The translations under genes and the position numbers were made by a program. The notes under the pieces were generated by a model. It searched no databases, had not been told where the DNA came from, and saw nothing but the letters and a program-made list of their open reading frames with translations. From contig CAYIDD010000006.1 in the NCBI GenBank assembly GCA_964362175.1, positions 1-54,325 on the forward strand: a stretch of DNA of 54,325 nt, read 5' to 3'. This document shows, in pieces, positions 14,557-54,325 of the stretch. Within the stretch, counting starts at the first letter, position 1. Each line of letters starts with the position of its first letter. The stretch is from an uncultured Candidatus Saccharibacteria bacterium. Lineage in GTDB: Bacteria; Patescibacteriota; Minisyncoccia; Phycocordibacterales; UBA2100.

Positions 14557-14590
14557 ACGATGAGGTTACGATGAGGTTTAACCTCATCGT
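14557..14590. repeat. REP-like palindrome upstream of RAYT-1
   Basis: Half copy ACGATGAGGTT followed by the full palindrome ACGATGAGGTT-T-AACCTCATCGT. Confidence 0.85.
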
Positions 14591-14608: not shown

Positions 14609-15313
14609 ATGGCCAACAGAAAACCGATCGAGATCGACGAGTGGTACCACTGCTACAATCGGGGAGTCGACAAACGGAGAGTGTTCCTCAACAAACGAGA
14701 TTACGAACGGATGCTTATCCTTATGTATTTGGCAAAGCATGCCCAAGCCGTTCGCCTTTTCGGTATGACTCACGCGCGGTTGAATGATGTACTCGGAAGC
14801 ACTTTGTCGAAAGAGGACAAGCCGATCGTCGAAATAGGGGCGTATGCGCTGATGCCAAACCATTTCCACTTCGTTCTTAAGGAGGTTCAAGAAGGTGGCA
14901 TTTCTCTCTTTATGCAAAAGGTATTCACTGGCTACACAATGTATTTCAATCAAAAAAATGCACGGACAGGCGCACTGTTCGCCGGTACCTTCAAATCGAA
15001 GCACATCGAAGATGACCAGTATCTGAAACATCTCGTTTCTTACGTGCACTTAAATCCGGCAGAACTCATTGATCCTCTATGGAAAGAAGGGACAAGCAAC
15101 AAGTCAGACATGGAAGAGAAACTGAGGCAGTATCCCTACTCGAGCCTACCAGAATTCTTAGGGGTGAAGCGACCCCATAGATCACTTCTCAATAACTCAA
15201 TTTTTGAGCTTTTTGAGAAGGCACCGACACTGCAACGAATGATTCATGAGGCAAAAACGTATCGAGCGCTCCAGTCCGATGAGGTTACCGATGAGGTTAA
15301 ACCTCATCGGTAG
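14609..15313 (+). CDS. REP-associated tyrosine transposase (RAYT, Y1/HUH family) 1
   Basis: YHCYNRG, HUH motif LMPNHFHF, RTGALFAGTFK, catalytic Tyr in YVHLNP, YPYSS. Flanked by palindromes. Confidence 0.88.
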   Translation: MANRKPIEIDEWYHCYNRGVDKRRVFLNKRDYERMLILMYLAKHAQAVRLFGMTHARLNDVLGSTLSKEDKPIVEIGAYALMPNHFHFVLKEVQEGGISLFMQKVFTGYTMYFNQKNARTGALFAGTFKSKHIEDDQYLKHLVSYVHLNPAELIDPLWKEGTSNKSDMEEKLRQYPYSSLPEFLGVKRPHRSLLNNSIFELFEKAPTLQRMIHEAKTYRALQSDEVTDEVKPHR

Positions 15314-15329
15314 GTTAAACCTCATCGGT
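15276..15329. repeat. REP-like palindrome cluster at the 3' end of RAYT-1
   Basis: CCGATGAGGTT, then ACCGATGAGGTT-A-AACCTCATCGGT, then AGGTTAAACCTCATCGGT. Confidence 0.85.
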
Positions 15330-15341
15330 AAGGTTATCGAT

Positions 15342-34620: not shown

Positions 34621-35106
34621 ATGCGCCTGATTCTGTCTATATGTGCGGCTTTCGTCGGCCTCGGCCTCATTATCGGGGCTGATGTTTATGCCTACCGCGA
34701 GATGGAGCGGATCCGTTCTTGTCCCGTCGTGTCGCTGAAGGGAGCGGCGCATGTTCAGTGCAAGGACTGGACTCGCGCGTTTCCTCTCAGCGCCGTCTTC
34801 GAGGGCGATCGCACGATGGTGCGAACGGGGGTCACCGTGCTTGAGTGCACGTGGACACAGAAAGCTTCTCGTGTGCTGGGCATCCCCCTCAGCACGGTGA
34901 AAAACAGCCGGCGGTGCGCGATCTTTAGCATCACCCGCAACGGGGACAACAAGGAGCCCGGGCGTTCGCCCGGGCTTCATTCTTTAGCGTACCTCCCAAC
35001 CCCTATCTTTCACTGCCGCATTCACTTTTTCCATGACCGCATTCGCCTCTGCATCGGTGAGTGTGCGCCCGGGGGATTGGAAAATGAGGCGGAATGCCAG
35101 CGATAG
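34621..35106 (+). CDS. Small exported hypothetical protein (3' end doubtful; may end near 34928)
   Basis: Hydrophobic N-terminus, four Cys in the first 100 aa after the leader, AGGGAG SD, TTGCCC-17-TATAGT promoter. The ORF runs through a hairpin into pheT. Confidence 0.55.
   Translation: MRLILSICAAFVGLGLIIGADVYAYREMERIRSCPVVSLKGAAHVQCKDWTRAFPLSAVFEGDRTMVRTGVTVLECTWTQKASRVLGIPLSTVKNSRRCAIFSITRNGDNKEPGRSPGLHSLAYLPTPIFHCRIHFFHDRIRLCIGECAPGGLENEAECQR
34955..34976. terminator. Hairpin between convergent genes
   Basis: AGCCCGGGCG-TT-CGCCCGGGCT. Confidence 0.6.
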
Positions 35107-36765
35107 TCTTCCGCTCTTTTCAAAACGGTCAAAGGGTCGCACATGCAGGCACATGGGCGCAGCCCACATCGCTAAATCCGATCGGAGACGGTCTGCATCA
35201 GTGTCGGCTGGCACCCAAAGTGCTATATCACGAACAATGAACGGATATTTTGAGAAAGGTTGATAGCGTCCGGTTTTCGAAAGCGGTAGCTCGTCATACG
35301 TGGGAGAACCCGCGCCTTCAAGATGCATCTCCGCTGCTTTTTCCTTTTCGCTCGCGGTACTAACCATCATCATTTCTTTACCGTCGCGCCACACTACCCC
35401 TATCTCGAATAATTTCACTTCTTTGAGCCCGAGCAGGTCTTTGTTGTGGATATTTCTTTCGAGCGCATCGTTGAGACCGTCGACGAGCGTCGCTCGCAAG
35501 TACGGCCTTACGCTATCGACTTTGTTGGCAACGGCTCGTTCGCCCGCATCGGCGAAGACGGATGTGAAGACTTCCGAATAGCCTTTCGAAACAAGGTCCT
35601 CGCGGATTTTCTCGGCCGCATAAAAATTCGCATTGACCTCCGGCTTTTTCGGGAACGGCGGCAGCTCGGTCGCGGGTACTTTGTCGTATCCGATGATGCG
35701 CCCCACTTCCTCAACTAAGTCTTCGGCGATGAGAATATCGAGACGCTCGAAGAGCGGGATAACTTTGAACACTCCGCCTTCTTCTTTGTACCCGAACTCC
35801 AGCCGCACAAAAACATCGGCGATCTCTGCTGCCGTTAATCCGGTCCCGAGCACCTGATTGATCTTTTCGACGGAGACAGAGACGGTTTTCTGATCCCCCT
35901 TCGTTGGATACGCGTCCGCGAACCCCGCGATCGTCCCGCCTGCAAGCTGCACGATGAGGTCCGCCGCCGCGCGCATACCGTATGCGGCCAACTCTGGAGA
36001 AATTACCTGCTCGAATCGCTGCGATGCGTCCGTACGAAGCTTTAATGCTTGAGCGGTCTTTCGCGTACTAGCCCCATCGAAGTTCGCGGACTCGATAACG
36101 ATGTCCACAGTATCACCGTCGACTCCCGAGGGCCTCCCACCCTTAACTCCAGCGATCCCTATGGTCGCATCTGCATTGGCGTCCGAAATAACAAGCATCG
36201 CAGGGGTAAGTGCATACTCTTTATCATCAAGCGCAAGCATTTTCTCTGCTTTTCGCGCGCTACGAACGGCGATCGCATACTTCCCGTCTTTCGCAGACAA
36301 CTTCCCTGCGTCGAACGCATGCAAAGGCTGGCCGAGATCGAACATCACGTAGTTCGTCGCGTCAACGATATTATTTATCGAGCGCTGCCCCAAGGACTCC
36401 AGCGCCTTTCGCAGCCATTCCGGCGACGGGCCGACCTTCACTCCCTTGATATAGCCAGCGATATACCGAGAACACAGTGGCGTATCGATGGATACTGACA
36501 CTGCCTCCACCTTCGGCTCGATGATGATGGACTTACGAGGTCCATCATTTTTGAGCGGGAGTTTAAGGATAGCGGAAAGCTCTTTTGCGATACCACGATG
36601 CGACAAGCAATCATGTCCACGATTCGGCGTTACTTTTACATCGAGAATGTCTCCCTCGATACCATCAATTTCGAACGCGTGGAATGTGAGCGCCTCGGAA
36701 AGCGCAGCCATATCAGACAGCGGGTTCTCAAAATAGGTTTGGAGCCACGCGCGCGAAATCTTCAT
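34984..36765 (-). CDS. pheT: Phenylalanine--tRNA ligase beta subunit (short form)
   Basis: MKISRAWL, VTPNRGHDCLSHRGIAKE, NNIVDATNYVM..GQPLHAFD, EDLVEEVGRIIGY, FDX-ACB domain RDIAL...RTLTDAE. Confidence 0.95.
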   Translation of the reverse strand: MKISRAWLQTYFENPLSDMAALSEALTFHAFEIDGIEGDILDVKVTPNRGHDCLSHRGIAKELSAILKLPLKNDGPRKSIIIEPKVEAVSVSIDTPLCSRYIAGYIKGVKVGPSPEWLRKALESLGQRSINNIVDATNYVMFDLGQPLHAFDAGKLSAKDGKYAIAVRSARKAEKMLALDDKEYALTPAMLVISDANADATIGIAGVKGGRPSGVDGDTVDIVIESANFDGASTRKTAQALKLRTDASQRFEQVISPELAAYGMRAAADLIVQLAGGTIAGFADAYPTKGDQKTVSVSVEKINQVLGTGLTAAEIADVFVRLEFGYKEEGGVFKVIPLFERLDILIAEDLVEEVGRIIGYDKVPATELPPFPKKPEVNANFYAAEKIREDLVSKGYSEVFTSVFADAGERAVANKVDSVRPYLRATLVDGLNDALERNIHNKDLLGLKEVKLFEIGVVWRDGKEMMMVSTASEKEKAAEMHLEGAGSPTYDELPLSKTGRYQPFSKYPFIVRDIALWVPADTDADRLRSDLAMWAAPMCLHVRPFDRFEKSGRLSLAFRLIFQSPGRTLTDAEANAVMEKVNAAVKDRGWEVR

Positions 36766-36766
36766 A

Positions 36767-37498
36767 CTAGAATTGATCGATGAACCGCAGATCGGCCGAG
36801 TGCATGAGGCGGATGTCGTCGATGCCCCAACGCAAAAGCGCAAGCCTGTCGAGGCCCATGCCGAAGGCGAATCCGCGATATTTTTTTGGATCAACCCCCG
36901 CATTCTCCAGAACGCTCGGATGCACCATACCTGCGCCCATCATTTCTATCCACTTGCCGCGCAACTTTTCGGGCGCAGCGTCCCCAACGACGCGCATATC
37001 CACCTCGACGCTCGGCTCCGTGAACGGGAAAAAACTCGGCCGGAAGCGTATCTCAACCTCGGCGCCCTTGAATAGTTCTTTGAAGAATCGAGCGAGTGTG
37101 CCTTTGAGATGCGCGAGTGTAATATCTTCCCCGACTGCGAGTCCTTCTATCTGAAAAAATTCCGCTTCATGTGTCACGTCGGTCGCCTCGTTGCGGAAGA
37201 CTTTGCCAGGCACGATGACGCGATACGGCGGCGCGATACCTTTTTTCATCTGCGATTCCATATAACGCACCTGCACAGGTGATGTGTGCGTACGCAAGAC
37301 CATCCCCGGCTCGTCCTTGATGAAAAATGTGTCCTGCATATCCCGCGCAGGATGATCTTGGGGAACGTTGAGGGCATTGAAATTGTGCCACTCATCTTCC
37401 AGAAGCGGTCCCTCCTCAAAGGCAAATCCCATATTGAAAAATATCGCGTTCGCCTCACGAATGAGCGACGAGATGGGGTGAATGTGACCACGCGGCAT
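36767..37498 (-). CDS. pheS: Phenylalanine--tRNA ligase alpha subunit (catalytic core only)
   Basis: GHIHP, HPARDMQDTF, LRTHTSPVQ, FRPSFFPFTEPS, GFAFGMGLDRL. Confidence 0.96.
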   Translation of the reverse strand: MPRGHIHPISSLIREANAIFFNMGFAFEEGPLLEDEWHNFNALNVPQDHPARDMQDTFFIKDEPGMVLRTHTSPVQVRYMESQMKKGIAPPYRVIVPGKVFRNEATDVTHEAEFFQIEGLAVGEDITLAHLKGTLARFFKELFKGAEVEIRFRPSFFPFTEPSVEVDMRVVGDAAPEKLRGKWIEMMGAGMVHPSVLENAGVDPKKYRGFAFGMGLDRLALLRWGIDDIRLMHSADLRFIDQF

Positions 37499-51553: not shown

Positions 51554-52564
51554 CTAGATCTTTTTCGCAACTTCGGCAACGTGCTCGATAAGCGTGTGCG
51601 TGTACCCCATTTCGTTGTCGTACCATGCAAGGACTTTCACCAAGAGGCCGTCGACGACGCGGGTCATGCCGAGATCCGCTATTGCGCCGTACGGCAACCC
51701 CAAAATATCGGAAGAGACAAGGGGCTCATCGGTCACGGCAAAGACACGCTTCCAGCGGTCAGTGGCCGCAGCCTTTTTCATCGCCTCGTTCACTTCTTCG
51801 ACCGTGGTCGGACGCGATGGTGTGAAGGTGATATCCACGATAGAGCCGGAGGGCACGGGCACACGCACCGCGATGCCATCGAATTTGCCTTTGAATTTCG
51901 GATAGACGAGCGCGGTCGCCTTGGCGGCGCCCGTCGAGGAGGGGCCGAGATTCTGCGCACCCGCGCGGCCGCGTCGGAAATCGTCGGGGGCCGTTCCATC
52001 AACGATACTTTGGGTCGCGGTGTAGGCATGCGTCGTGTTGAGGAGCGCGCGCTCGATCCCGATGGCCTCATCCAGTATCCCAATGAGCGGGCTCGCGCAG
52101 TTGGTCGTACATGATGCATTCGACGTAATGTCGCACGTGCCGAACTTTTCTTCATTTGCACCGATGAGGATGGTCTCGACGCCCTCACCTTTGCCGGGCG
52201 CCGTGATAACAACGCGTTTCGCGCCCGCATCAATGTGCGCGCGAGCTTTCGCGCCGTCCGTGAAAAATCCCGTTGATTCAACGACGATGTCGATGCCCAT
52301 GTCGCGCCACGGCAGTTTCGCGGGGTCATTCTCTGCAAGCACGGGGATCGTTTTTCCGTCGACGACCAGCAAGTTGCCGCCAGCGGCAACAGAAAACTTG
52401 GCGCGACCATAGACCGTATCGTACTTCAAAAGGTACGCGAGATTTTCTGCGGATGAGAGGTCATTGATCGCAACGATCTCGAAGTCACTCCTGCCCTGAG
52501 CGGCGCGGGCAAATCCCCTCCCGATCCGACCGAAACCATTTATTGCTATCCGTACCATATTCAT
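51554..52564 (-). CDS. gap: Glyceraldehyde-3-phosphate dehydrogenase type I
   Basis: INGFGRIGR, SNASCTTNC, STGAAKA, WYDNE. Confidence 0.97.
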   Translation of the reverse strand: MNMVRIAINGFGRIGRGFARAAQGRSDFEIVAINDLSSAENLAYLLKYDTVYGRAKFSVAAGGNLLVVDGKTIPVLAENDPAKLPWRDMGIDIVVESTGFFTDGAKARAHIDAGAKRVVITAPGKGEGVETILIGANEEKFGTCDITSNASCTTNCASPLIGILDEAIGIERALLNTTHAYTATQSIVDGTAPDDFRRGRAGAQNLGPSSTGAAKATALVYPKFKGKFDGIAVRVPVPSGSIVDITFTPSRPTTVEEVNEAMKKAAATDRWKRVFAVTDEPLVSSDILGLPYGAIADLGMTRVVDGLLVKVLAWYDNEMGYTHTLIEHVAEVAKKI

Positions 52565-52626
52565 TCAGTAAAATTCGATCTTCTAAGTGTCCTGCCATTG
52601 TAGCGCACTTTTTCCTCCCTCCTGTG

Positions 52627-52655
52627 CAAAAAAGGACTTCCGATGTCCTTTTTTG
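52627..52655. repeat. REP-like palindrome upstream of RAYT-2
   Basis: CAAAAAAGGAC-TTCCGAT-GTCCTTTTTTG. Confidence 0.85.
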
Positions 52656-52670
52656 ATATACTCAAAATTA

Positions 52671-53342
52671 ATGCCTCTCATCCACGCACTCAACCGCGGG
52701 ACAGACAAGCGCGACATCTTTATGGACGACCATGACCGCATGCGTTTTTGCTATGGACTTTTTCTTTTTAACGACACGAGACACGTGGACATCGCTGCTC
52801 TCAAGACGAAAGGACTTCCGATGTCCTTTTTTGTGGAATCGACTCCCCCGCGCAAACGACTAGTTGATGTTCACGGGTGGTGCCTGATGACCAATCACTA
52901 TCATTTATTGCTTTCCGAACGCACGGAGAGCGGAGTGAGCCGTTTCTTGCAGAAACTTAACATCGGGTACGCGAAATATTTTAACGACCGCCACAAGCGC
53001 GTCGGGACGTTATATCAAGGACGTACCAAGCAAGTACTTATTGAGTCTGACCGACAGTTCCTGCACATTCTTAACTACATTCATTTCAACCCGCTCGATT
53101 TCCTCAATGGATCCAAGGAATGGCGGGAGCGACGCATTTCAAATACGCAAAAAGCACTCGACCATTTGAACAAGTACCGGTGGAGCAGCTACGCAACCTA
53201 TTGCGGCAAAGGAGACTTTCCCGCCATCACGACAACTGAGCTATTTGCCGACGTTTTCAAGGATTATAAGCGGGAGGTTGTGGGATATTTGCACGATATC
53301 GAGATCGAGAGTATCCAACTTGACGGCCTAAACCTTGAGTAA
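52671..53342 (+). CDS. REP-associated tyrosine transposase (RAYT, Y1/HUH family) 2
   Basis: HALNRG, HUH motif LMTNHYHL, RVGTLYQGR, YIHFNP, YRWSS. Flanked by palindromes. Confidence 0.88.
   Translation: MPLIHALNRGTDKRDIFMDDHDRMRFCYGLFLFNDTRHVDIAALKTKGLPMSFFVESTPPRKRLVDVHGWCLMTNHYHLLLSERTESGVSRFLQKLNIGYAKYFNDRHKRVGTLYQGRTKQVLIESDRQFLHILNYIHFNPLDFLNGSKEWRERRISNTQKALDHLNKYRWSSYATYCGKGDFPAITTTELFADVFKDYKREVVGYLHDIEIESIQLDGLNLE
52809..52833. repeat. REP-like copy inside the RAYT-2 coding sequence
   Basis: AAAGGAC-TTCCGAT-GTCCTTTTTTG, read as KGLPMSFF. Confidence 0.85.
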
Positions 53343-53366
53343 AAAGGACATCGGAAGTCCTTTTTT
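53341..53366. repeat. REP-like palindrome downstream of RAYT-2 (inverted orientation)
   Basis: AAAAAGGAC-ATCGGAA-GTCCTTTTTT, overlapping the stop codon. Confidence 0.85.
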
Positions 53367-53372
53367 GGGTTG

Positions 53373-54325
53373 TTATGGGGTGGTGGATGTGTCGGTTGTA
53401 GGTGCTGGATCTGTGGTTGGCGCGGGTTCTGGTGCGGGCGCCGGAGCCGGATCCACTGTAGGCGCGGGGTCAACCGTGGCTGGGTCGGTTGTCCCTGTAG
53501 TTGTAGTGGTTGTGGTTGTGGTGTCTATAGTTGTGGTAGTAGGCGCAGGGTCGGTAGTCGGTGTTGGGTCTGTGGTTGTTGGATCAGTGGTGGAAGTGGT
53601 GGTGGTCGAATCCGTGGTCGTAGTGGCGGTCGACGTAGTAGTCGATGTTGGCTCCGGTGCGGGGGCGGGGTCTGGGGCGGGGGCAGGCGCGGGTGAGCTT
53701 GCCGTGGCAGTTTGTCCGGCCAAAAGCGCATCCAACTGACTCTTCGTCACGCATGTCTGCGCGCCACCCTCATCCGCAACACAAAGTTTCTTTGTCGTGA
53801 CCTGATCCGCGCTAACGTTGACCGCAACCAACTCTTTCGTAAATATCTTTTCTATCCCATTCCCCGCATCCGCAAGCCACCCCATAACCCGCGCAAAGAG
53901 GTTGTTCCAGAAACTCGAGGCAAACGACTGCGATACCGGAGTCGAAGAGGCCGTAGTCGAGGCGATTGTTTCAAGATTAAGCGAGAGCTCCTGTATCGCC
54001 CCGGTGAGCACGGCGGTGAGCTTGCTGTAGTCGAGGCGCTCGTACCCTGCCGTGTCGGTGATGACGAGGTCGGTATTCGGGAAGAGCGACTTGACGTCCT
54101 GCGCGATGAAGCCGAGCGAGCTGGAGGTGCCGGTGTTGTACTCCCCGTTCCAAGTGAAGGTGACGGGGCGCAGCTGCTTCACGAGGCTGAGGGCGCCACC
54201 GAGGTCGGCGATGTTGTTCTTCAGCCGCACGTCGGAGATTGCGGACGTGTCGTCGGTACACACGTCGTCGGCGTTGAGGTCAAGGCAGACGGTCCCCTTT
54301 ACGTCAAGGAGCGCGTCGGGGGTCG
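53373..54325 (-). CDS. Fibre/adhesin-like protein with peptidase S74 intramolecular chaperone domain and Thr/Pro-rich tail (5' part outside window)
   Basis: Frame stays open to the window edge (TPDALLDVKG...). SDVRLKNNI...LRPVTFTW...GFIAQDV..LFP...LDYSKL...AIQEL. Confidence 0.85.
   Translation of the reverse strand, partial: TPDALLDVKGTVCLDLNADDVCTDDTSAISDVRLKNNIADLGGALSLVKQLRPVTFTWNGEYNTGTSSSLGFIAQDVKSLFPNTDLVITDTAGYERLDYSKLTAVLTGAIQELSLNLETIASTTASSTPVSQSFASSFWNNLFARVMGWLADAGNGIEKIFTKELVAVNVSADQVTTKKLCVADEGGAQTCVTKSQLDALLAGQTATASSPAPAPAPDPAPAPEPTSTTTSTATTTTDSTTTTSTTDPTTTDPTPTTDPAPTTTTIDTTTTTTTTTGTTDPATVDPAPTVDPAPAPAPEPAPTTDPAPTTDTSTTP

Follow-up and report, generated by a model that had tools for sequence, protein, structure and literature searches.

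Hairpin binding, tyrosine cleavage near the hairpin foot and rejoining have been structurally solved for TnpA-REP and for the TnpA protein of IS608, and phiX174 gene A and pT181 repC each contain the DNA site on which their own nicking-joining product acts. TIRYT proteins and their TIRtrons (Di Nocera 2013, PMC3733652) are equated with TnpA-Y1 subclass 2.1 (Quentin 2018, PMC6006769) and RAYT group 1 (Bertels 2017, PMC5581495) in the available portions of these papers; such Y1 enzymes are widespread, and the same portions report neither their hairpin partners nor their role. The accessible text on subclass 2.1 gives NH[YF]H and Y[IV]HLNP as its motifs and a length near 238 aa (PMC6006769). In addition, palindromic repeats located in frame in housekeeping genes, where they are tolerated in loops, are described for intragenic REPs and the Rickettsia RPE in the sections available (PMC10969869, PMC3733652).

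Here we analyzed the gene RAYT-2 in a stretch of 54,325 nucleotides (the window) from a Kaiserbacteria-like patescibacterium of groundwater, with a 780-kb assembly. We consider it fairly probable that the region 52627-53366 is a compact unit of the RAYT/TIRYT type, made up of a Y1 HUH gene and three cognate palindromes kept alike by exchange. The gene (52671-53342, forward strand) is an open reading frame from ATG to TAA that encodes a Y1 HUH enzyme of 223 aa, divergent from gapdh (51554-52564, reverse strand). The HUH motif corresponds to H76-Y77-H78 and the catalytic tyrosine to Y136, within YIHFNP; N75, H76, H78, Y136 and N140 are invariant across 70 aligned homologues. Residues 65-119 matched the Pfam family Y1_Tnp (PF01797; 27.3 bits, cut-off 23, E 4.3e-6), with no further Pfam family at E ≤0.01, and the score against the NCBIfam RAYT equivalog NF047646 (40.3 bits) was under the cut-off of 80. 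An AF2 model (pLDDT 90.4), in which the C-terminal helices are present, had as top Foldseek match TnpA-REP bound to a REP hairpin (4er8_A, E 1.4e-5), followed by the TnpA proteins of ISDra2 and IS608 (2xma, 2xo6, 2vjv), with nine matches at E ≤0.001; a PDB profile search likewise returned 4er8 (E 1e-4). Judged by its sequence and modelled structure, RAYT-2 is an intact Y1 HUH enzyme gene. A -10-like hexamer, TATACT (52657-52662, forward strand), is located 8 nt before the ATG, a spacing that suggests a leaderless or near-leaderless transcript. Most of 29 orthologous loci also have a TATA(C/A)T-like hexamer after the upstream palindrome, usually 6-8 nt before the ATG (by eye). A consensus scan of 52400-53500 returned 0 promoters and 0 terminators, the promoter result being uninformative since the rule needs four of six -35 matches.

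The original prediction placed three copies of AAAGGAC-TTCCGAT-GTCCTTT at RAYT-2, and the sequence bears this out. The upstream copy (UP; 52627-52655, unstranded) is a perfect hairpin, CAAAAAAGGAC-TTCCGAT-GTCCTTTTTTG, with an 11-bp stem and a 7-nt loop, located in the divergent intergenic region shared with gapdh, where it spans the -35/spacer to be expected for the RAYT-2 promoter; a single base, 52656, separates its end from TATACT, as had been described, and the region 52622-52660 folds with -14.4 kcal/mol (RNA parameters). The internal copy (IN; 52809-52829, forward strand) is the hairpin AAAGGAC-TTCCGAT-GTCCTTT plus a T-run, with the shared stretch extending to 52833. It is read in frame as K47-G-L-P-M-S-F-F54, which agrees with the KGLPMSFF translation given previously, and belongs to the loop that runs from helix 1 (ending in FND) to the strand leading to the HUH motif, modelled with lower confidence (pLDDT 73 for residues 41-50 and 65 for 51-60). 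As in intragenic REPs and RPE, the 223-aa frame stays open and keeps all catalytic residues despite the palindrome. The downstream copy (DOWN; 53341-53365, unstranded), AAAAAGGAC-ATCGGAA-GTCCTTTTT, lies between convergent genes and overlaps the stop codon TAA (53340-53342) in the inverted orientation that had been claimed; its loop, ATCGGAA, is inverted with respect to that of UP and IN, TTCCGAT, so that inverted copies enclose the gene, as in RAYT/TnpA-REP loci. Each of the three copies at this locus is followed by a T-run, and none is flanked by a GTAG-type guide.

The 23-nt palindrome occurs three times in the assembly (780,135 bases, 26 contigs), always at RAYT-2 and nowhere beyond it, and the 17-mer core at 0-2 mismatches gave the same three occurrences genome-wide. 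With up to 3 mismatches, this core matched six times in the window, corresponding to the three sites on both strands, against an expected 0.10 and with six matches reached in 0/100 shuffles. A 15-nt core, GGAC-WTCSGAW-GTCC, was found five times in the genome (three at RAYT-2, one in LeuS and one in a PurL-like gene) and 0 times in shuffled sequence. The genome-wide mapping that had been proposed thus divides: exact copies are confined to RAYT-2, while the shorter core also reaches two other genes, in line with the proposal that such palindromes occur in frame within coding sequence. With every exact copy located at the gene itself, dispersal by the RAYT-2 enzyme is not seen in this genome.

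RAYT-2 is not the only gene of its type here. The RAYT-1 gene in the window is associated with a different palindrome, CGATGAGGTT-A-AACCTCATCG (14557-14590 and 15276-15339), and a third RAYT-like gene (C4:70799-71473) is flanked by GGGAGGCGAGGCCTCCC and an inverted copy of it, so the two coexisting enzyme/palindrome pairs of the original prediction are in fact three in the genome. The three homologues share 32-35% mutual identity. When the window was scanned for hairpins (perfect stems of at least 8, three core types), PheT (36524-36548) was the only hit besides the two RAYT genes.

Compared with TnpA-REP and the REPtron of Escherichia coli (4ER8), RAYT-2 shares the Y1 HUH fold, this being its best structural match, as well as the inverted palindromes bracketing the gene, the presence of the palindrome elsewhere in the genome and paralogues that are diverged rather than near-identical. 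It differs in scoring under the cut-off of the NCBI RAYT model, in the missing GTAG guide, in its palindromes, which are near-perfect around a 3-nt centre where REPs are bulged, and in carrying one palindrome inside its own reading frame. The number of copies also sets it apart: there are 3-11 sites per genome (here three exact copies, five by core), mostly intragenic, versus hundreds for REPs, which are highly repeated outside genes. To the TIRYT proteins of subclass 2.1, as described in the available parts of the sources, it can be likened tentatively in size (~220-240 aa; 223 here), in the NH[YF]H motif (NHYH) and, with F instead of L (YIHFNP), in the Y-x-H-x-NP tyrosine motif; it shares with them flanking inverted repeats that are sometimes self-complementary and often rare in the genome, and the coexistence of several diverged genes in one genome with a separate repeat for each. 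However, the accessible portions of that literature report neither REP-like hairpins nor an in-gene copy for the subclass (PMC3733652, PMC6006769, PMC5581495); furthermore, the GGGGWSAS repeat motif is missing at RAYT-2, a C-terminal HTH-like domain was undetected in it (Pfam found only Y1_Tnp), and its host belongs to the Patescibacteria. IS200/IS605 elements such as IS608 and ISDra2 resemble the unit in their HUH/Tyr chemistry, the recognition of single-stranded hairpins and the small single-gene format, but RAYT-2 has inverted flanks, a fixed locus, no identical copies and solitary palindromes elsewhere. Unlike intragenic REPs and RPE, the elements described here are just 21-33 nt long and linked to an adjacent gene for the cognate enzyme, their orthologous sites vary in sequence from genome to genome, and the enzyme's own gene is among those that carry them. 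The sites of phiX174 gene A and pT181 repC are phage and plasmid replication origins, whereas no replicon is evident at RAYT-2. In the literature we found no RAYT or TIRYT with a palindrome in its own frame, and none in Patescibacteria, although supplements of the RAYT papers might list cases.

Related loci were then compared, all genomes used here being metagenome bins. Each of the 30 closest homologous loci has a palindrome specific to it, both upstream of the gene and in the corresponding loop, which answers affirmatively the question raised earlier of whether related RAYTs hold their cognate palindrome there. The palindrome is also present at the stop codon in 26 of 29 scored loci, the exceptions being two contig ends and one foreign palindrome. 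Within a locus, the median agreement of IN with UP or DOWN is 24/25 bases (at least 22 in 89.7% of the comparisons), versus 17/25 in the cross-locus control (at least 22 in 8.1%), and the core follows the protein clade: GACYT-nnn-ARGTC in clade A, GGACA...TGTCC in clade B and AAGGT-nnn-ACCTT in clade C. For wider sets of loci we relied on exact 12/13-mers, controlled by codon shuffling, a 10-mer link being too lenient and the strict core too narrow. Exact 13-mers are shared between UP and DOWN in 61/67 and 63/78 loci (two sets) and with internal site 1 in 39/67 and 23/78, the latter with 0 in the codon-shuffle controls of both sets; a second recurrent internal site is found at around +416 to +471 nt in other lineages. 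The RAYT-2 clade as a whole conserves the three-site layout, which is also seen in a distant clade and more widely across Patescibacteria. On sequence comparison, palindromes that are specific to a locus and nearly identical within it constitute concerted evolution. The internal copy had been taken as the best local evidence that palindromes enter genes; its conservation across the whole gene clade speaks against that use of it. At the same time, it was absent from RAYT-1, RAYT-3 and all 20 loci sampled in clade B, and therefore the enzyme does not need it.

As for the mechanism, the RAYT-2 enzyme, as a putative single-strand DNA nuclease/ligase, would recognise the three copies as cognate sites, two of them forming an inverted pair on either side of the gene, one covering the -35/spacer of a promoter of leaderless type and the other the stop codon, and the third in frame within a flexible surface loop. 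Each copy would form a hairpin when the DNA is single-stranded; the enzyme would bind it, its tyrosine would cut near the foot and the DNA would be rejoined, as in TnpA-REP and the TnpA of IS608. The sameness of the copies could stem from strand exchange among them or from templated conversion, either of which may also overwrite or seed other sites, of which the copy in the enzyme's own gene would be the nearest, with a permissive loop that tolerates the palindrome. We infer from the sequences that an ongoing exchange process of this kind homogenises the copies. Bound to the upstream copy, the enzyme probably represses its own promoter, the palindrome acting as operator, and bound to the internal copy it may exert an additional brake. 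The location of UP upstream of the -10-like box, together with the orientation of the centre triplets (IN in both ways, with ACG in 14 loci and CGT in 11; UP mostly CGT, in 20/29; DOWN mostly ACG, in 20/26), argues for a role at the DNA rather than the RNA level. A dimeric protein that binds double-stranded DNA would, however, be served just as well by palindromes of this near-perfect kind, with their 3-nt centre.

A different view of the unit, as an autonomous insertion sequence of the IS200/IS605 type whose outer palindromes are end hairpins and whose inner copy is incidental, would fit its size (~740 bp), its one Y1 transposase gene and subterminal hairpins, the up to 14 homologues per genome, the several genomic contexts of these homologues and the occurrence of members of three clades beside gapdh in different genomes. 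This we regard as unlikely, given that the three homologues of this genome are far from near-identical copies and that solitary palindromes, not whole elements, are dispersed in relatives. Moreover, clade-A RAYT genes keep gapdh as their left neighbour, ~75-120 nt away, in 15/30 loci, a sign of vertical persistence, even though RAYT identity is down to 51-59% (GAPDH itself being 69-81% identical to that of the window in these loci). The flanking hairpins are also mostly inverted with respect to each other, whereas in IS608-type elements both end hairpins are on one strand, according to the portion of the source available (PMC6006769). It is harder still to credit that the palindromes are an operator, attenuator and terminator for host machinery or another regulator and are ignored by the encoded enzyme. 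The position of UP on the promoter, that of DOWN between convergent genes and the T-run after each copy at RAYT-2 would agree with it, but the T-run is missing from most orthologous copies, the terminator scan found none, the palindrome type follows the clade of the adjacent enzyme, and a local signal leaves unexplained the same sequence inside unrelated genes of one genome.

Those genes are found in relatives of the host, where each genome has 0-8 extra sites of the cognate palindrome, most of which are read in frame within housekeeping genes such as PheT, LeuS, PurL and TsaD. G069 and G082 have three sites each and zero extra, G081 four, G097 and G046 six, G035 nine and G105 eleven; 13 of 16 non-RAYT sites examined were within Pfam-supported genes, and in G105 the palindrome bracketing the RAYT gene is also in frame in PheT, LeuS, PurL, UvrC, AdoHcy hydrolase and MiaA. 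The idea that RAYT-like enzymes are a host system which writes palindromes into protein loops for diversification, the RAYT-2 copy being one product, draws on the fact that palindromes replace or extend loops in PheT, TsaD, LeuS and PurL, that the orthologous sites in these four proteins carry different palindromes, and hence different peptides, in different genomes, and that the same host sites recur across genomes. We nevertheless hold it to be very unlikely, and the 'RAYT-driven protein-loop diversification system' remains speculation: the hosts are conserved housekeeping enzymes, for which tolerance is the simpler explanation of altered surface loops, this genome has exact copies of the RAYT-2 palindrome at that gene only, and the pattern fits selfish intragenic palindromes such as Rickettsia RPEs (PMC10969869) and intragenic REPs (PMC3733652), as presented in the parts of these papers available. 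There is an equally slim chance that the internal copy is roleless and not homogenised, being passively re-inserted time and again into a single tolerant loop. Its frame does vary from clade to clade (the centre falls on codon position 1 in 27/29 clade-A loci and on position 2 in clade C), other lineages do have the second internal site, and TsaD contains a true insertion of 12-17 residues; but the 30 clade-A loci all have the copy, with constant frame and, among the loci displayed, at one and the same stretch of the alignment, and G000, G069 and G082, which lack extra copies, still keep IN matched to the flanks. Loops bearing the copy are also only ~2-6 residues longer than those without it, and thus a simple insertion is not demonstrated.

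A more tentative extension of exchange between cognate copies, which we would not favour as it stands, is that hairpin sites are persistent 'landing pads', overwritten with the palindrome of the resident Y1 enzyme through hairpin-for-hairpin strand exchange and evolving in concert with it, one pad being the loop of the enzyme itself that immediately precedes the HUH strand. The corresponding region of TnpA-REP gives R46 to the hairpin-binding surface. If the sites did behave as landing pads, a change of palindrome would directly rewrite part of the protein beside its DNA-binding face, so that site and reader would be coupled in one stretch of DNA. The comparison provides a clear pairing of enzyme and palindrome, a conserved three-site layout with concerted evolution and, in the dozens of natural enzyme/site pairs differing in sequence, a ready specificity series for biochemistry. 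In the gene-dense, tiny genomes of Patescibacteria such palindromes reside mainly inside proteins, which bears on annotation, on marker-gene alignments and on the persistence of selfish or domesticated DNA where intergenic space is nearly nil.

DNA looping with a fixed helical phase was also considered and discarded, since the UP-IN centre distances (~161-211 bp, hand-derived) show no constant phase. Contigs from four public DNA runs cover RAYT-2 with all three copies and only small differences; they contain no rearranged forms or joints at the locus, contigs being blind to rare forms. Mapping beside gapdh in 20 genomes did not fix the borders of the element, the intergenic DNA being too diverged, and revealed that the closest relatives have other neighbours at this position; in G121 the Pro/Thr-rich gene directly adjoins gapdh, and in G104 a RAYT-1-like gene occupies that spot.

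RAYT-2 is an intact Y1 HUH enzyme gene (52671-53342, 223 aa) with three cognate palindromes at fixed places, a layout that is conserved among its relatives. Direct reading of the region located the core AGGACTTCCGATGTCCT at 52633, at 52811 and, inverted, at 53345. The upstream copy (UP) forms a hairpin with an 11-bp stem (52627-52655), and the TATACT hexamer (52657-52662) starts two bases past its end; the internal copy (IN) has a 7-bp stem (52809-52829), with the common stretch extending to 52833, and is translated in frame as K47-GLPMSF-F54; the downstream copy (DOWN), with a 9-bp stem and the loop inverted (53341-53365), is overlapped by the TAA stop of the gene. These three copies, including the in-frame reading KGLPMSFF, had been put forward in the original prediction and are all confirmed by the sequence. 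A search for the core pattern with up to three mismatches gave six matches, corresponding to the three sites on both strands, with 0.10 expected and none of 100 shuffles reaching six. Throughout the assembly (780 kb, 26 contigs, 94.5% complete), the core at 0-2 mismatches was present in these three places only.

The Pfam Y1_Tnp profile matched RAYT-2 at 27.3 bits, above the cut-off of 23, and the NCBI RAYT equivalog profile at 40.3 bits, below its cut-off of 80. Residues N75, H76, H78, Y136 and N140 were invariant in an alignment of 70 homologues, which was the input for an AlphaFold2 model (mean pLDDT 90.4, pTM 0.88). Its only lower-pLDDT parts were the C-terminal tail and residues 41-60 (73 and 65 per ten-residue block), which form the loop with the palindrome-coded residues. 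Foldseek with this model returned first 4er8_A, the TnpA-REP protein with a REP hairpin (E 1.4e-5), and then the transposases of ISDra2 and IS608; 4er8 was likewise a hit when PDB sequences were searched with a profile (E 1e-4). The genome has two more RAYT-type genes, RAYT-1 (window ~14609-15313) and a third on contig C4 (C4:70799-71473), both 32-35% identical to RAYT-2. Each of the three genes is bracketed by a palindrome of its own, in agreement with the proposal that separate enzyme/palindrome pairs coexist. Several overlapping copies of the RAYT-1 palindrome, CGATGAGGTT-A-AACCTCATCG, lie on both sides of that gene (14557-14590 and 15276-15339), and its ORF (14609-15313) runs into the downstream copy. 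CarB (C2:47740) also contains the RAYT-1 21-mer in frame, and LeuS (C2:114594) a shorter version of it.

Homologues were searched for in 151 genomes of the same family, all of them, like every genome in this analysis, metagenome bins, and 116 of these had at least one, the highest number in a genome being 14. The 30 best loci, that of the window included (protein identity 51-61%), each have their own palindrome in three positions: ~15-50 nt upstream of the start codon, within the ORF at +126 to +167 nt, and on the stop codon or directly behind it; the exceptions are two loci that stop at a contig end and, for the downstream palindrome, one foreign and one chimeric case, and a few of the internal copies show partial decay (L002, L009, L020). 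The downstream palindromes of loci L015 (genome G028) and L008 (G030) are of another locus's type or a chimera with one, which hints at end exchange between elements.

Within a locus the copies show concerted evolution, which in relatives extends genome-wide. When centred 25-mers were compared, IN agreed with the flank copies of its own locus at a median of 24/25 bases (at least 22 in 89.7% of comparisons), whereas on the flanks of other loci the same IN 25-mers gave a median of 17, with at least 22 in 8.1%. In clade A, the protein clade to which RAYT-2 belongs, the palindromes have near-perfect symmetry around a central triplet. Across 29 loci this triplet was CGT in 20 and ACG in 7 of the UP copies, ACG in 20 and CGT in 4 of the DOWN copies, and ACG in 14 and CGT in 11 of the IN copies; thus, flank copies are usually inverted to each other and IN is found in either orientation. 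The IN centre occupies codon position 1 in 27/29 loci, that of the window being one of the two exceptions.

The range of the internal copy was analyzed with 40 further homologues from two lower identity bands, picked by listing order and ignoring the feature, and a tree of 71 proteins (IQ-TREE quick search) for which internal-copy labels were set before tree building. The idea that related RAYTs hold their cognate palindrome in the same loop was borne out by all 30 clade A proteins and 13 of the 21 in clade C, which includes RAYT-1 and RAYT-3, both without the copy, and by none of the 20 in clade B, the sister of clade A. At least five changes of this label are needed on the tree, two of them forced by well-supported branches. 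In clades A and C the copy occupies the same alignment region, between the helix with FND/ANS at its end and the strand that runs to the HUH motif, and copy-bearing loops are somewhat longer than copy-free ones (median 29 residues in clade A vs 23.5 in clade B; 31 vs 29 with and without the copy in clade C). A wider scan with the homologue alignment, using one genome per species, yielded 80 loci, with record titles of Kaiserbacteria, Paceibacteria, Wolfebacteria, Azambacteria, Nomurabacteria, other Patescibacteria and a few other labels. Taking as shared an exact common 13-mer, direct or inverted, UP and DOWN matched in 61 of the 67 loci scored in the first set and 63 of the 78 scored in the wide set; a shared internal copy was present at site 1 (+110 to +235) in 39 and 23 loci, respectively, and at site 2 (+400 to +490) in 0 and 9, with 0 at either site after codon shuffling in both sets. 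The second recurrent in-frame cognate site, at ~+416 to +471 nt and after the catalytic-tyrosine motif, was seen in L100, L142, L149, L151, L152, L154, L163 and L165, loci of other Patescibacteria lineages, and some genes have both internal sites filled.

A divergently transcribed gapdh adjoins 15 of the 30 loci, with rpiB beyond it in 12 of these. GAPDH identity to the window is 69-81% at these loci and RAYT protein identity 51-59%, and hence the gene has kept its position beside gapdh over a long period of divergence, during which its three palindromes changed in step. In the two nearest relatives, judged by GAPDH (91% and 90% identity), other neighbours lie beside gapdh and the RAYT spot is empty, and in one genome a RAYT-1-like gene is in the gapdh-side spot. 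The position just upstream of gapdh (window 52565-52670; L044, L070, L077) holds RAYTs of clades A, B or C or a RAYT-1-like gene depending on the genome, and is possibly a hot spot, or else has been occupied for a very long time. No rearranged forms of the RAYT-2 locus were detected in the assembled contigs of public runs. Downstream of RAYT-2 lies a gene for a Thr/Pro-rich low-complexity protein (53373-54263, minus strand), which in public contigs shows small indels (3-nt and 27-nt insertions, a 6-nt deletion).

Palindrome copies are mostly inside genes. Genome-wide mapping gave a divided answer in the window's genome: beyond its three sites the exact RAYT-2 palindrome is absent from the whole assembly, while the 15-nt core GGAC-WTCSGAW-GTCC occurs five times (mean 0.0 in 20 shuffles). 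LeuS and a PurL-like gene contain the two additional core copies, both of them perfect palindromes of greater length. Scanning the genome for perfect hairpins of three clade-typical cores added palindromes in PheT, TyrS, CarB (the RAYT-1 cognate 21-mer), TsaD, RsmA/KsgA, an HhH-GPD glycosylase and DHFR. The PheT palindrome (36524-36548, in the minus-strand gene 34987-36939) is of clade-A type, perfect, with a 9-bp stem and a 7-nt loop, and is read in frame as NDGPRKSIII; 7/30 orthologues have a palindrome in this loop, of at least five sequence types and with length almost unchanged. Likewise, at orthologous sites in TsaD, LeuS and PurL the palindrome differs by genome, and TsaD has a true insertion of 12-17 residues in two genomes.

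In relatives, the link of the dispersed palindrome to the enzyme is, at the sequence level, direct. A single 21-nt palindrome occupies 11 sites in G105, three at the gapdh-adjacent RAYT (upstream, +134 and downstream), one in PheT and seven elsewhere; cognate palindromes were found at nine sites in G035 and G026, seven in G102, six in G097 and G046, five in G079, four in G081, G100 and G108, and three in G082 and G069. The G105-type pattern also appears in G064 (five sites), where no cognate RAYT locus was identified, and in G033 (one site), for which the search of 151 genomes gave no close RAYT-2 homologue. G033 and G000 each have one orphan copy of a foreign palindrome type, and two control genomes had no copies of a foreign pattern. 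Sequences were retrieved for 16 non-RAYT sites in three genomes: 13 sites fall in Pfam-supported genes (UvrC, LeuS, AdoHcy hydrolase, PurL, MiaA, TsaD and a zincin), another is at the junction of genes, and the remaining two are outside any gene.

By analogy with solved homologues, as described in the available parts of two reports (PMC3479197, PMC6006769), the enzyme would bind the palindromes when these are folded into hairpins in single-stranded DNA, and would cut and rejoin DNA near them. The proposed exchange between copies could explain both why they are so alike and how persistent sites come to be overwritten, and the IN copy would be the nearest member of the site set, kept in a permissive loop of the enzyme's own gene. 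Residue R46 of TnpA-REP helps hairpin binding according to the accessible text of PMC3479197, and alignment to 4er8 places it just before the HUH-carrying strand, so the palindrome-coded loop of RAYT-2 plausibly lies near DNA. The UP copy is predicted to be probably an operator. In most clade-A loci, inspected by eye, there is a TATA(C/A)T-like hexamer 0-6 nt beyond the UP palindrome, usually 6-8 nt before the ATG, and the left arm of the palindrome is often TTGAC or TCGAC; UP would thus cover the -35/spacer region in a promoter of the leaderless type. The UP copy itself would then be untranscribed from the RAYT gene's own predicted promoter and this, along with the free orientation of the IN centre, argues for a role of the palindromes at the DNA rather than the RNA level.

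We found no literature report, supplementary files aside, of an in-frame self-copy in RAYT/TIRYT, nor of RAYT/TIRYT-type elements in Patescibacteria. Among described elements, those most similar are REPtrons, TIRYT/TIRtrons, intragenic REPs and Rickettsia RPEs. In the available parts of the corresponding papers, TIRYT/TIRtrons are equated with TnpA-Y1 subclass 2.1 by Quentin et al. (PMC6006769), and this subclass largely matches RAYT group 1 (PMC5581495, PMC6006769). According to those parts, REP-like hairpins were not found for subclass 2.1, and they make no mention of a copy inside the gene.

Other palindromes were observed outside the window. Homopolymer palindromes at C4:56925-56959 (a C run of ~17 followed by a G run of ~16) and C13:13553-13581 (G13...C11) may be assembly artefacts. 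Four perfect palindromes of 25-27 nt, at C1:40710, C3:22697, C7:18944 and C12:13191, form a family, TGCAATGAGGTC-W-GACCTCATTGCA; no adjacent RAYT gene was seen, and two members lie in genes, those for the HhH-GPD glycosylase and RsmA/KsgA.
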